Counted from the stretch's first letter, positions 56,924 to 64,000 are shown. The stretch: DNA of 64,000 nucleotides from an uncultured Actinomycetes bacterium (GCA_963783865.1 CAWAPD010000003.1:485009-549008), one strand, 5' to 3'. Numbers and translations are program-made. The notes: generated from the sequence alone by a model not told the origin.

Positions 56924-58324
56924 GTGGAGTCGAAGATCCGTACCCGTATGGGCGACGGCGCCCTCGTCGAGACGACCCCGTCCGAGATCAGAGCCGATCT
57001 CGAGGCAGGCACTCAGCAGGCCGCCAAGCGCTCGAAGTACCCCGAGCTCACCAGCGACGAGCTCGACCACCTGCTCGACATCTTCGCGTCGAACAGCCGG
57101 GTGACCGGCGTCGACATCGGCGACGAGGTCGTCCTCAGCTACGACGGCTGCGGCAGCCAGGACATGGGGACCCGTATCAACGACCTCCAGGTCTACGAGC
57201 AGATCCTCTGCGCCGACTCGCTCGAGATGTACAGCCACGACTACTCGTACAAGCCGTGCAAGCCCCTCGTGCCTTACGAGCAGGCGATCATGCGCCAGGC
57301 GCAGTGGCTGCTGACGGCGCCCTGCGGCTACGGGGCGATGAGCGACCTCGGGCGCTACACCGTGCCCGACGGCCCGGTCGTCAACTGGTCGCAGCTGCTG
57401 CCGCTGGGCCAGATCGACGAGGCTCGGGCGGCCCAGGAAGAGGCCGTCGAGCTCGCCGCCGACGACATGGTGTTCGTGGCCGAGGGCATGGTCGAGGCCG
57501 GCGTCGACCACATCGACTTCGACACGGCCGGAGCGGCCGGCGACGCCGACTTCCTGGCCACGCTCAAGGCGATCGAGCGGCTGCGCGCCGCCTATCCCGA
57601 CTTGGGCATCCAGATCGGCATGGCCGGCGAGTTCGTGCTCGGCATGCACGGCGAGCTCGAGTACGACGGCAGGCGCCTGGCCGGCATGTGGCCGGTGCAG
57701 CAGATGGAGGCGGCGGCCAAGGCCGGCGTCACCATCTTCGGGCCGGCCGTCAACACCAACACCGGCAAGTCGATCGCCTGGAACGTGGCCCGCGTGCTGA
57801 CCATCTGCAAGCCGGTCTGCGAGCAGTCCACCGTGCCGGTGCACGTGAACGGCGGGATGGGCGTGGGCGGCGTGCCGATGCACATCACGCCGCCCGGCGA
57901 CGCGACGACCAGAGCCTCGCGGGCCTGCGTCGACATCCTGCGCCTCGACGGGTTGTAGGTGGGCGCCGGTGACGTCTACGGCCAGGCGACGGCGCACAGT
58001 GTCGCCTCGAGCATGGGCGGTATCCGCACTGCGGGAGATCTCGTAGCCAGGATGCAGTTCACCCGGGGCATGAGGAACATCGAGGCCAAGCGGTACGTGG
58101 CCGAGAAGCTGGGCGTGTCGGCGCTCGACCTGGTCGACCCGGTCGTGATGCTCGACGTGCGCAAGGAGTTCGGCCTGGGGTCGATGTACGAGTCCGAGAT
58201 CTCGGGACCCGACGACCCGCTCGCCATCGAGGCCAAGTTCAACATCTCGAAGGTGCTCGACGTCCCCATCAACTGCGTCGAGCGTTTCAAGGAGAAGAGC
58301 GGCCGGGCGGCGGCCCGGGCGTAG
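56924..58324 (+). CDS. mtbB: dimethylamine:corrinoid methyltransferase MtbB homolog (Dimeth_Pyl family), copy 1, with in-frame TAG (putative pyrrolysine codon) at 57956-57958
   Basis: Conserved MtbB blocks on both sides of the TAG: TRMGDG, YGAMSDLGRYTVPDGP, DFDTAGAAGD, GMAGEFVLGMHGELEYDG, FGPAVNTNTGKSIAWNVARV, GMGVGGVPM, then DGL-TAG-VGAGD...ASSMGGIRTAGDLVARMQF...EAKRYVAEKLGV; the ORF track splits it into 56897..57958 and 57959..58324; GGAGG RBS before GTG 56924. Confidence 0.75.
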
Positions 58325-58351
58325 CCCAAGGCCGCCGCTCGTGCGGCAGGA

Positions 58352-58392
58352 GGGGCGGCGGCGTGGCGGATGCCACGCCGCCGCCCCTTTCG
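58352..58392 (+). terminator. rho-independent terminator after mtbB copy 1 (also terminates convergent PHP gene)
   Basis: GGGGCGGCGGCGTGGC-GGAT-GCCACGCCGCCGCCCC followed by TTTCG. Confidence 0.7.
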
Positions 58393-58447
58393 CGTCTCGG
58401 CGCCGCGGCCGGGCGCGGCAGGCCGGCCGAGTCGGCCGGCCAAGGAG

Positions 58448-59251
58448 CTACGGCAGCGGCACCGGCGTCCGGTCCGACAGCCTGAGAGTCTCGGTGTAGC
58501 CGGCCGCGCGCGCCGCGGCCACGCCCTCCTCGAAGAGCATCCCGATGTCGCCGAGCTCGTGGGCGTCCGAGCCGAACACCAGCGGGATCCCCAGCTCGCG
58601 GGCGCGGGCGAGCTGGCGTGGGGAGGGGTACATCGCGCCGGCGGGGTCGAGCACGCCGCCGGTGTTCAGCTCGAGCGCCATGCCGGCGGCGGCGACGGCG
58701 GCCAGGGCCCGGTCCTCCCACCTGGTCACGTCGGCGGCGGGACGGTGGCCCCACAGGCTCACGTAGTCGAAGTGCGCGAGCACGGCGAAGAGCCCCGACC
58801 GCGCGGCCCGCTCGACCACGGCGTAGTAGTCGCGGTAGACGGCGTCGACGTCGTCCCAGCGCGAGTCACGGCGCTTGTCGTCGTCGCCGGCGAAGTCGAA
58901 GTCGCCGACGAAGTGGACCGAACCGAGCGCATAGTCGAAGGGGTGGGCCGCCAGCGCCTCGGCCAGCCAATCCTCGCGCTCGGGCAGGTAGTCGGCCTCG
59001 ACCCCCAGCAGCACGGTGATCTCGGGATGGCGGTCGGCCGCGTCCTCCACGTCGGCCACGTAGCGCTCGAGGAGGGACGGCGCGACGCCGTACTCGCCGA
59101 CGGTTCCGAGGCCGGGCGGGACGAGGTGGTCGGTGATGCCGATCTCGGCCAGCCCGAGCGCGACGGCGCGCTCGACCACGTCGTCGATCTCACCAGTGCC
59201 GTCGGAGTAGCGGGTGTGCAGGTGGTAGTCGCCGAGCAGGTGGTAGTCCAT
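58448..59251 (-). CDS. PHP-family hydrolase, histidinol-phosphatase (HisK)-like
   Basis: YHLHTRYSDG, ITDH, HF..., SDAH PHP metal-ligand motifs, about 267 aa typical of HisK-type HolPases; ATG 59251. Confidence 0.7.
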   Translation of the reverse strand: MDYHLLGDYHLHTRYSDGTGEIDDVVERAVALGLAEIGITDHLVPPGLGTVGEYGVAPSLLERYVADVEDAADRHPEITVLLGVEADYLPEREDWLAEALAAHPFDYALGSVHFVGDFDFAGDDDKRRDSRWDDVDAVYRDYYAVVERAARSGLFAVLAHFDYVSLWGHRPAADVTRWEDRALAAVAAAGMALELNTGGVLDPAGAMYPSPRQLARARELGIPLVFGSDAHELGDIGMLFEEGVAAARAAGYTETLRLSDRTPVPLP

Positions 59252-62074: not shown

Positions 62075-62118
62075 GGGCGGGGGCGGGGCGCGGCGGGAGC
62101 CGCGCCCCGCCCCCGCCC
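62075..62118. terminator. bidirectional GC hairpin between mtbB copy 2 and convergent secreted-protein gene
   Basis: 20-bp perfect stem GGGCGGGGGCGGGGCGCGGC / GCCGCGCCCCGCCCCCGCCC with GGGA loop. Confidence 0.6.
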
Positions 62119-62120
62119 TT

Positions 62121-62741
62121 CTACTTGAGCCGCGCGAGGAACGTCACGCTCCCGAACGGGTCGCCCGGGGCCGGCGCGAGACCGAACACGCCGTCGATCG
62201 CGCCCACCGAGGTCGCGTTGAAGAACAGAAGGACGTTCGTGACCTTCACGTACTTGCGGCCGTGGATGGTCACCACCGACGGTATCGAGCCCATGAGGTT
62301 CTCGTCGAAGAAGTTCGCCGAGCGGGTGCCGTTGACGGAGATCGAGAAGCCGGTACCGGTGTTCACGCCCGCGCGCCAGCCTTTCAGGTCGAGCAGGAGG
62401 AAGGTGCTCGTGCCTGGACTCACGTAGGCAAGCCCGCCTCTGAGCAGGAAGGTGCCGTGCGCCCCGGCGCCCGGGGTCCAGGTGCCACCGCGGATCGGCA
62501 TCGTGAACGTCGCGTCGGATGTCGTGAACGACATCCTCGCGGGGGGGATCGGGTACGGGGGGAGGCTGGAGCCGATGAAATCACCGGTCTCCGTGGGGTC
62601 GAGGGTGAAGGTCGCCGTCCCGGCTCCCAGCGTGTGGACGGCCGCGCCGGCCGCGGCCGGCGCGAGCAGGAGCAGCAGGCAGGCTGTGAGGGTCAGGGCG
62701 AGAGCTGTCGGCACGCGCCGGCGCTGGCGAACGGTGCTCAT
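62121..62741 (-). CDS. secreted hypothetical protein with signal peptide (possible lipoprotein)
   Basis: N-terminus MSTVRQRRRVPTALALTLTACLLLLLAPAAAGAA then Thr/Gly-rich beta-type sequence; no known domain. Confidence 0.5.
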   Translation of the reverse strand: MSTVRQRRRVPTALALTLTACLLLLLAPAAAGAAVHTLGAGTATFTLDPTETGDFIGSSLPPYPIPPARMSFTTSDATFTMPIRGGTWTPGAGAHGTFLLRGGLAYVSPGTSTFLLLDLKGWRAGVNTGTGFSISVNGTRSANFFDENLMGSIPSVVTIHGRKYVKVTNVLLFFNATSVGAIDGVFGLAPAPGDPFGSVTFLARLK

Positions 62742-62987
62742 GAGTGGACCTCCCTCATTTCCGCGAACGGTCGTGTCGTCGAAGTCTTCCCGGGGTGGCG
62801 CTGAGCAGTCGCGATGGCCCGTGGCGGGCCGGCATGCAAGCCACGCCTTGCCGCCACGGAAGCGGCTGGGGTACGATGCACCCTACCTGTCGAACGTTCA
62901 GAGTCGCTTCGCTGCCACGCACGGGGGCTTCCTGGGAGGGGGCCGCTCCGCGGAGCCGGAGGCCGTGAAGCCGCGGAGGTGAAGCTG

Positions 62988-64000
62988 GTGGAAGCGCAGG
63001 TACCGGCCCCGTCCGAGGGCCGCATCCCCACGCGCATGGGCGACGGTTCGCTGACCTTCATGACCCCGGCCGAGCTGCGCGCCGACATCGAGGACGGCAT
63101 GCAGGCGGCGGTGGCCAAGGGCAAGGTGCCGCCGCTGATCGACGCCGAGATCGACCACCTGCACGAGATCTTCACCTCGCGGGCGCGGTTCACGGCGGTC
63201 GATCTCGGCGACGAGGTCATCCTCAGCAAGGACGGCTCGGGCACGCCGCAGCTGGGCAGCCGCGTCGACGCGCTGTACGGCTGCGAGCAGGTGCTGGGGC
63301 ACGACACCTGCGAGCTGTTCCACATCGACTACTCCTACAAGGCCGTCAAGACGATCGTGCCGTTCGAGCAGCAGATCATGAAGGAGGCGCTCGAGCGCCT
63401 GACGATCCCGGTCCACTACGGCGCCCAGCCCGACCTGGGCCGTTACTCGGCGCCCGACGGACCCTGCGGCAACTGGTCCGAGCTGCTGCCCCAGGTCCGC
63501 ATCGACGAGGCCCGGGCCGCGCAGGAAGAGGCGGTCGAGCTCGCCGTCGAGGACATGGTCTACGTGGCCGAGAGCATGTGGGAGGCCGGCGCCGACGGCA
63601 TCAACTTCGACACCGCCGGCGCCGCCGGCGACGGCGACTTCCTGGCCACCCTGCTGGCGGTCGAGAAGCTGCGCGCGCGCAATCCCGAGATGGGCATCAT
63701 GGTCGGCATGGCCGGCGAGCTGCTGCTCGGCACGCACGGCCGGCTCGAGTACAAGGGCACGCGCCTCGCCGGCCTCAAGCCCGAGGGCCAGCTCAAGGTC
63801 GTCCAGGAGGCCGGGGCCACCGTGTTCGGCCCGGCCGTCAACACGAACACCAGCCGGTCGACCGCCTGGAACACGGCCCGCGCGGTCACCTACGTCAAGC
63901 CGTGCATGGACGCGGCCAGGATCCCCGTGCACATGAACGTGGGGATGGGCGTGGGCGGCGTGCCGATGTACGGCTTCTGCCCCGTCGACGCGGTGACGAG
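62988..64000 (+). CDS. mtbB: MtbB homolog copy 3, 3'-truncated by window end (the expected TAG position lies beyond 64000)
   Basis: Same conserved blocks (TRMGDGSL, YGAQPDLGRYSAPDGP, NFDTAGAAGDGD, GMAGELLLGTHGRLEYKG, FGPAVNTNTSRSTAWNTARAV, GMGVGGVPM); GGAGGTG RBS as in copies 1 and 2. Confidence 0.7.
   Translation, partial: MEAQVPAPSEGRIPTRMGDGSLTFMTPAELRADIEDGMQAAVAKGKVPPLIDAEIDHLHEIFTSRARFTAVDLGDEVILSKDGSGTPQLGSRVDALYGCEQVLGHDTCELFHIDYSYKAVKTIVPFEQQIMKEALERLTIPVHYGAQPDLGRYSAPDGPCGNWSELLPQVRIDEARAAQEEAVELAVEDMVYVAESMWEAGADGINFDTAGAAGDGDFLATLLAVEKLRARNPEMGIMVGMAGELLLGTHGRLEYKGTRLAGLKPEGQLKVVQEAGATVFGPAVNTNTSRSTAWNTARAVTYVKPCMDAARIPVHMNVGMGVGGVPMYGFCPVDAVT

Follow-up and report, generated by a model that had tools for sequence, protein, structure and literature searches.

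In-frame UAG codons predicted to encode pyrrolysine in the dimethylamine methyltransferase (mtbB) genes of a high-GC actinobacterium

Genes for the dimethylamine:corrinoid methyltransferase MtbB, each with an in-frame amber codon, were analyzed in a 64,000-nt stretch of DNA from an uncultured Actinomycetes bacterium (GCA_963783865.1 CAWAPD010000003.1:485009-549008; hereafter, the window), where the mtbB region spans positions 56924-64000. The UAG of the MtbB genes in this high-GC actinobacterium is very probably decoded as pyrrolysine (Pyl), giving one chain of ~466 amino acids (aa) from each gene. Five lines of evidence support this interpretation, which had been put forward in an earlier note on the same DNA: the position of the codon within the protein family, the fixation of TAG among homologs, the ratio of nonsynonymous to synonymous substitution rates (dN/dS), matches to the RNA element PYLIS_2, and the presence of pyl loci in the same clade.

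The mtbB copies and the position of the amber codon

The three copies and the amber codons of the first two are located as follows.

56924..58324, plus strand: mtbB copy 1, dimethylamine:corrinoid methyltransferase (GTG start at 56924, alternative GTG at 56897; read-through product of ~466 aa)
57956..57958, plus strand: in-frame TAG of copy 1, predicted pyrrolysine codon (position skipped by PF09505 and TIGR02368)
60645..62046, plus strand: mtbB copy 2 (start at ~60645, possibly ATG at 60654; last ~33 codons in the +1 frame, ending with TAG at 62044-62046)
61692..61694, plus strand: in-frame TAG of copy 2, predicted pyrrolysine codon (same skipped model position)
62988..64000, plus strand: mtbB copy 3, N-terminal 337 codons (GGAGG before the GTG at 62988; exits the window ~12 codons ahead of the Pyl position)

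The search with PF09505 that the earlier note had proposed, run with the pieces on either side of the TAG scored separately, placed both halves of copies 1 and 2 far above the cut-off of 25 bits (390.7 + 128.4 bits for copy 1 and 411.4 + 101.1 bits for copy 2). With TIGR02368, the pieces of copy 1 scored 301 and 89.7 bits, and their sum, obtained from two separately scored pieces, was 390.7 against a whole-protein cut-off of 369.1. The N-terminal pieces aligned to PF09505 positions 3-353 and the C-terminal pieces to positions 355-462, placing the TAG at position 354; for TIGR02368, the alignments covered positions 5-355 and 357-464, placing it at 356. The TAG is the sole position skipped by either model, in agreement with its proposed location at the Pyl position of MtbB. 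In Methanosarcina barkeri MtbB, residue 356 is reportedly the Pyl site (Paul et al. 2000). The genes are MtbB, and the UAG occupies the Pyl position. No relative of MtbB was found among PDB structures.

Translation confirmed that copies 1 and 2 each contain a single in-frame TAG at the homologous position, the read-through sequences being ...CVDILRLDGL-TAG-VGAGDVYGQ... in copy 1 and ...VEILKIDGY-TAG-VGTGDPLGM... in copy 2, and the motifs SxMGGxRTAGDLVARMQ and EAK[RQ]YVA that had been quoted for them are present. The N-terminal piece of copy 1 up to the TAG comprises 344 aa (exact protein P0001), and the terminator of the gene itself is another TAG (58322-58324). The peptide of copy 1 spanning the predicted Pyl would be LDGL-O-VGAGDVYGQATAHSVASSMGGIR, with a pyrrolysine residue mass of 237.15 Da. 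The amber codon of copy 3, which lies beyond the window, was seen in L001, an indel-rich ENA contig 95% identical to the window that extends 4 kb past its end; there, a TAG at L001 position 17124 is read in ...LRLDGL-TAG-VGSGD and is accompanied by a PYLIS_2 match. The claim of three paralogous MtbB genes with a conserved amber codon is thereby upheld, with two codons inside the window and the third in this contig. The +1 frameshift of copy 2 results from a 1-bp insertion near 61948-61949, an extra C in GGCCGAG (61940-61955). The inserted base is missing from four orthologs including L001 and is probably an assembly error or, otherwise, a very recent frameshift.

Relatives of these genes were collected in two scans. 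An MtbB genome scan of GTDB species representatives (one genome per species) yielded 11 related metagenome-assembled genomes (MAGs), labeled Thermoleophilia, Actinomycetes, or Actinomycetota; their sources include soils in Denmark (MFD isolates) and Stordalen Mire (isolates palsa_647 and bog_752), and none has pyl genes within 10 kb of mtbB. The closest MAG in the species representatives searched showed 84% identity over the best aligned segment. A metagenome scan found mtbB relatives in 367 stretches, indicating a lineage widespread in soil, peat, and freshwater sediment. The mtbB loci of the relatives are syntenic with the window, sharing the order ClpB ... SurE - HAD - LigA - mtbB.

TAG was found at this codon in the two window copies and in 32/32 further copies from 13 related loci, as well as in 88 mtbB copies from metagenomes (80 loci surveyed, 63-72% GC), and neither TGA nor TAA ever takes its place. 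Among ~120 copies, a sense codon occupies this site once, namely GAG (Glu) in L041 (positions 1501-2793 of JGI contig Ga0209840_1000665), a copy with a ~30-residue deletion near the N-terminus in which the RNA hairpin downstream of the codon, described below, is kept. Non-TAG hits in L076 and L096 proved to be chance matches of the search motif elsewhere, not sense variants. A full-length MtbB homolog of 466 aa from a low-GC organism (protein P0113), 52% identical to copy 1, carries Leu in place of Pyl (KIDGL-L-IGTGD) and is a possible MtbB of the non-Pyl type. Within the window, same-frame pairs of open reading frames (ORFs) at 48735 and 49840 were considered as further genes with in-frame TAG and rejected; they are ordinary neighbors (an MBL hydrolase, and a zinc-ribbon protein followed by an EAL protein).

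Pyrrolysine machinery in the clade and TAG as a terminator

A protein search with the catalytic domain of Methanosarcina mazei PylRS returned only Methanosarcina-like proteins among the 120 matches listed; the actinobacterial PylSc was found via a search of representative proteins that combined this domain with high-GC amino-acid composition. A subsequent search with one such PylSc-like protein (P0263) produced 2,879 relatives, some of which are named "pyrrolysine--tRNA(Pyl) ligase large subunit" by NCBI and come from Thermoleophilia and Actinobacteria MAGs. The Amidase_3-pylSc end of the locus is syntenic in 7/7 MAG contigs examined (L013, L014, L022, L023, L024, L108, and L109). In its fullest form, the order is GltX ... 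TldD/PmbA - OsmC - Amidase_3 - pylSc - corrinoid protein - radical SAM - pylSn - Germane-domain - pylT - pylD - pylC - pylB - nitroreductase - ThiS - ferredoxin - AFOR, with pylT-pylD-pylC-pylB on the strand opposite to the pylSc part. Genes pylD, pylC, and pylB are present in L013, L014, and L023; elsewhere, the flank is too short or the order diverges after pylSc. A gene of 108-109 aa occupies the pylSn position in five contigs, its family being confirmed in L013 only.

The five Pyl proteins of L013 exceed the cut-offs of the respective NCBIfam equivalog models.

PylS_Cterm: 317.9 bits (cut-off 178)
PylS_Nterm: 122.7 bits (cut-off 51)
PylB: 427 bits (cut-off 348)
PylC: 280 bits (cut-off 248)
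PylD: 213 bits (cut-off 150)

ARAGORN called a tRNA-Pyl (anticodon CUA) in both L013 and L014. The molecule adopts a compact cloverleaf fold in which a single base separates the acceptor stem from the D stem, the D loop has 5 nt, and the variable region is very short. The L013 tRNA-Pyl (14197-14269, minus strand) escaped detection with the Rfam tRNA model at a threshold as permissive as E ≤ 1, which fits its atypical compact structure; annotation based on this model could overlook tRNA-Pyl. The corrinoid protein gene beside pylSc encodes 210 aa and scored below the cut-offs of both models compared (208.6 bits with the MtbC model NF041607, cut-off 350, and 213.6 bits with TIGR02370, cut-off 215.3). 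In L022, a 1.14-Mb contig, pylSc directly adjoins an mtbB gene that contains the in-frame TAG and matches PYLIS_2. A complete pyl system exists in the clade.

A radical SAM gene of 292 aa is conserved in the pyl locus (L013 11863-12741, L014 11916-12794, L023 11861-12739, L108 5544-6422, and L109 4870-5748). It lies between the corrinoid gene and pylSn in L013, L014, L023, and L108, and no corrinoid gene was called in L109.

In the mechanism suggested by these genes, split PylSc/PylSn would charge Pyl onto tRNA(CUA), and pyrrolysine would be inserted at the internal UAG. Full-length MtbB could then transfer a methyl group from dimethylamine to the MtbC-like corrinoid protein, from which a second methyltransferase would pass it on to one-carbon metabolism.

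Several observations weigh against Pyl decoding in the genome from which the window derives. As the earlier note had stated of pylTSBCD, MtbC, and a methylcobamide methyltransferase, scans of the 64 kb for tRNAs, PylS, and Pfam domains revealed no gene for tRNA-Pyl, PylS, PylBCD, a corrinoid protein, or a second methyltransferase; the only tRNAs in the window are tRNA-Leu, tRNA-Lys, and tRNA-Thr, and the neighbors of mtbB include a PHP hydrolase and a 2-hydroxyacid dehydrogenase. Among the contigs examined, no sample paired an mtbB contig with a separate pyl contig: the mtbB contigs came from samples ERZ25039467, 477, 489, 517, and 519 and the pylS contigs from ERZ25039459, 483, 503, 527, and 603, with both genes in 459 only. 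That the genome of the window itself carries a pyl locus is presumed from its relatives.

The remaining points against Pyl decoding concern the use of TAG as an ordinary terminator. The stop-codon tallies come from small samples of genes called by a third-position GC (GC3) heuristic and indicate scale only: TAG ends 13/36 genes in the window (TGA, 22; TAA, 1), 29/113 genes in related mtbB loci, and 6/56 genes in pyl loci, that is, ~23% of stops overall and 36% in the window. The window genes ending in TAG include topA (19732-19734), dnaK (42646-42648), clpB (47985-47987), and mtbB copy 1, behind whose terminal TAG no further stop occurs in frame for 714 codons. The suggestion in the earlier note that TAG is rare at this GC content, and recoding therefore cheap, did not hold up, as between about a quarter and a third of genes stop with TAG. 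With TAG this frequent and a 714-codon extension open behind copy 1, efficient general decoding of UAG would be costly. In Pyl-positive archaea, the median TAG usage is 5%, with a range of 1-27% (PMC12626013); for a lineage equipped with Pyl machinery, the usage here is high. With this share of ordinary genes ending in TAG, decoding must be partial, conditional, or aided by context. Conditional decoding is known from Acetohalobium arabaticum, which expresses its pyl genes only in the presence of trimethylamine (PMC11467909); a favorable local context might be provided by the conserved hairpin.

The lack of pyl genes in the window could also be explained if the machinery had been lost or never present and the UAG were read at low level by a near-cognate or other suppressor tRNA inserting a standard residue. 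In favor of this explanation, homologs with sense codons do exist (Leu in P0113 and GAG in L041). Under it, however, sense replacement would be expected often, and it was seen once in ~120 copies, in the gene with the N-terminal deletion; moreover, TAG is strictly kept in the closest relatives with syntenic ligA-mtbB loci, and complete pyl loci are conserved in the clade. We consider read-through without pyrrolysine very unlikely.

Selection and RNA structure downstream of the UAG

The codon directly 3' of the TAG, compared in 34 copies, is GTG in 21, GTC in 9, GTA in 3, and GCG in 1; it behaves as a Val/Ala codon rather than a conserved restart. Substitution rates were compared over 50 disjoint sequence pairs, and the pooled dN/dS was 0.21 for the 30 codons before the TAG, 0.15 for codons +1 to +18 (from the TAG to the first conserved Met), and 0.20 for codons +19 to +69, the two shifted frames giving 2.3 and 3.4. 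Whole-gene estimates were 0.24 upstream and 0.30 downstream of the TAG. Judging from these ratios, the part 3' of the UAG is coding sequence that evolves in the mtbB frame under purifying selection. The low dN/dS across the TAG in this frame excludes pseudogenes as well as a C-terminal peptide with an initiation site of its own.

If the TAG were a true stop, the C-terminal 120 aa would either have a translation start of their own, for example the Met that lies 19 codons further on, or remain untranslated, and the enzyme would consist of two chains or be truncated. Gene callers do split every mtbB copy in two at the TAG, as had been anticipated, TAG is a normal and frequent terminator in these genomes, and the ATG 19 codons 3' of it is conserved. 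Yet the 18 codons between TAG and ATG have a dN/dS of 0.15 in the mtbB frame and of more than 2 in the others. Initiation at the codon after the TAG is contradicted by the 13/34 copies in which this codon is GTC, GTA, or GCG and hence no start codon, and nothing resembling a Shine-Dalgarno sequence precedes the ATG in the aligned sequences. A plain stop would also not be constrained to be always TAG, never TGA or TAA, across ~120 copies, and the clade possesses pyl machinery. A split gene is accordingly a highly improbable arrangement. Decay of pseudogenes with coincident nonsense mutations, to which the frameshift near the 3' end of copy 2 might point, is effectively refuted by an identical TAG in three paralogs and ~120 homologs (an impossible coincidence), by purifying selection on both sides of the TAG, and by the single-base nature of the frameshift, which is absent from L001 and three other orthologs.

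Pyrrolysine decoding of the mtbB UAG is further supported by the RNA element PYLIS_2, which was matched in both complete copies.

57956..58055, plus strand: PYLIS_2 (Rfam RF02509) of copy 1, 54.7 bits (gathering score 36), model positions 1-100
58029-58046, plus strand: PYLIS_2 3' hairpin of copy 1 (stem CUGCGGG, loop AGAU, stem CUCGUAG)
61692..61791, plus strand: PYLIS_2 of copy 2, 61.2 bits (gathering score 36), model positions 1-100
61765-61782, plus strand: PYLIS_2 3' hairpin of copy 2

PYLIS_2 also matches all mtbB copies in the five relatives tested. The 3' part of the element is a hairpin of 7 bp that occupies positions +73 to +90, counted from the U of the UAG, with the consensus stem C-N-G-C-N-G-G, loop AGAY, and stem C-U-N-G-U-N-G, in which the GGAGAY motif is retained. 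Two codons that are rare in this genomic background fall within it: third-position A/T amounts to 7% across 25 clean copies, yet codon +26 is GGA in 25/25 and codon +27 is GAT in 23/25. In 24 distinct sequences, 95.4% of the cells were paired compared with 84.4 ± 1.5% in shuffled sequences (0/500 as high), the covariation score was 0.285 compared with 0.088 in shuffles (0/500), and slid controls paired at 30-48%. Among 105 unique sequences, the first variable pair was G-C in 20/21, C-G in 44/45, and U-G in 39/39, and the second was G-C in 18/18 and C-G in 47/48; both variable pairs connect synonymous third positions and keep to Watson-Crick or G-U pairing with hardly an exception. RNAalifold, applied to 115 sequences over 300 nt, recovered the 7-bp hairpin alone, with neither a larger structure reaching back to the UAG nor the 5' hairpin of the model. 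The hairpin was considered as a new RNA element and rejected as such, being equal to the 3' hairpin of the existing Rfam PYLIS_2.

The retention of GGA and GAY against a background of 7% A/T at third positions, together with covariation at synonymous sites, is what suggests a site-specific role for the hairpin. That it is a true cis signal favoring Pyl insertion over termination, which would make decoding site-specific rather than a general ambiguity, seems to us a doubtful proposal. To our knowledge, function has never been shown for the PYLIS element of mtbB.

Relation to known systems and gene neighborhood

The M. barkeri proteins MtbB1-3 are reported, in work by Paul, Ferguson, and Krzycki from 2000, to contain UAG-encoded pyrrolysine. 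The actinobacterial genes resemble them in family, similar length, the presence of paralogs within a genome, a single UAG at the same alignment position, and PYLIS_2 after the UAG. They differ in that the host is a 70%-GC actinobacterium, not a methanogen, and has no coenzyme M pathway, that mtbC, pyl genes, and a permease are missing from the mtbB cluster of the window, and that identity to the models is moderate. PYLIS_2 (RF02509) itself was defined as a 100-nt element starting at the UAG by Theil Have et al. 2013 (PMC3639795). The elements found here likewise start at the UAG and keep the 3' hairpin with GGAGAY, but in copy 1, the single copy inspected, the model's 5' hairpin shows poor pairing.

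The PylRS of the relatives is split as in the bacteria with PylSc/PylSn (Desulfitobacterium hafniense, Acetohalobium arabaticum, Bilophila wadsworthia, and the Olavius symbiont). Their pyl cluster is also interrupted and lies beside a gene for a methylamine corrinoid protein, as in other bacterial Pyl systems (PMC3941956), and the continued use of TAG as a terminator resembles A. arabaticum, fitting conditional decoding (PMC11467909). Unlike here, where mtbB is present in 2-3 copies, those bacteria use Pyl mainly in MttB or MtmB, and mtbB has been described as almost exclusive to Methanosarcinales (PMC3941956). The gene order of the pyl locus in the relatives is different as well, running pylSc, corrinoid protein, radical SAM, pylSn, and Germane-domain, with pylT-D-C-B on the opposite strand.

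These genes are not the first sign of Pyl in Actinobacteria, and the novelty attributed to them in the earlier note has to be given up: PylRS genes were already counted in two Actinobacteria (Guo et al. 2022, PMC9630628), and expression of Pyl-encoding mtbB and mttB has been reported for Actinobacteriota MAGs of Stordalen Mire (Ellenbogen et al. 2023, PMC10805028). Pyrrolysine-type mtbB in Actinobacteria of soil and peat is thus on record. The latter study listed the genus Bog-752 among the most active methylotrophs of Stordalen Mire; it inferred Pyl from gene truncation alone and did not mention pyl genes or the RNA element (PMC10805028). One of the MAGs in our set, L011, is isolate bog_752 (PLTW01), whose name matches this genus; like the window, it has a three-copy mtbB cluster adjoining tRNA-Thr, with 80% protein identity to copy 1. 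The window belongs to another species. The present analysis adds that the clade has a paired pyl locus including pylT, that pylSc and mtbB are physically linked in one MAG, that selection is evident across the UAG, that TAG persists as a major terminator, and that covariation among more than 100 diverged bacterial copies supports the mtbB PYLIS hairpin. It provides a well-documented Pyl case outside methanogens, Firmicutes, and Deltaproteobacteria. The combination of Pyl genes, heavy use of TAG stops, and more than 100 copies of the hairpin makes guidance of Pyl insertion by a cis element testable in bacteria. Because mtbB is systematically misannotated as two fragments, dimethylamine turnover by actinobacteria is undercounted in methane-relevant habitats.

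A tRNA-Thr(UGU) gene (56462-56537) adjoins mtbB copy 1 in the window, as it does mtbB in L001, L003, L009, L011, L012, and L021, and the ligA-tRNA-Thr-mtbB arrangement is conserved across MAGs. Directly 3' of copy 3, several relatives encode a non-Pyl member of the MttB superfamily with no in-frame TAG (L001 17511-18955, L002 14880-16319, and L011 15480-16913); it is absent from L003 and L012, and its position in L001 corresponds to just past the end of the window. In L005, a Thermoleophilia MAG, mtbB is immediately followed by a Pyl-type mttB (11400-12882) with a TAG at 12394 and a PYLIS_3 match of 73.7 bits, so the clade also has a Pyl-dependent trimethylamine methyltransferase. ATP-binding cassette (ABC) transporter genes (PF04392 substrate-binding proteins, PF02653 permeases, and ATPases) flank mtbB in L021 (20533-21035), L022 (14951-19640), and L026/L027 (16640-19500) and are candidates for a methylamine uptake system; no ABC transporter gene adjoins the mtbB copies of the window.

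The other genes of the window identified with Pfam encode, among further proteins, PknB-type kinases, FhaA, a PP2C phosphatase, RodA, topoisomerase I, DnaK-GrpE-DnaJ-HspR, ClpB, and LigA. In addition, a large ORF at 36897-38966 on the minus strand matches multiheme cytochrome c families (Cytochrome_C7, paired CXXCH, and MtrC/MtrF-like), a type of protein uncommon in actinobacteria.

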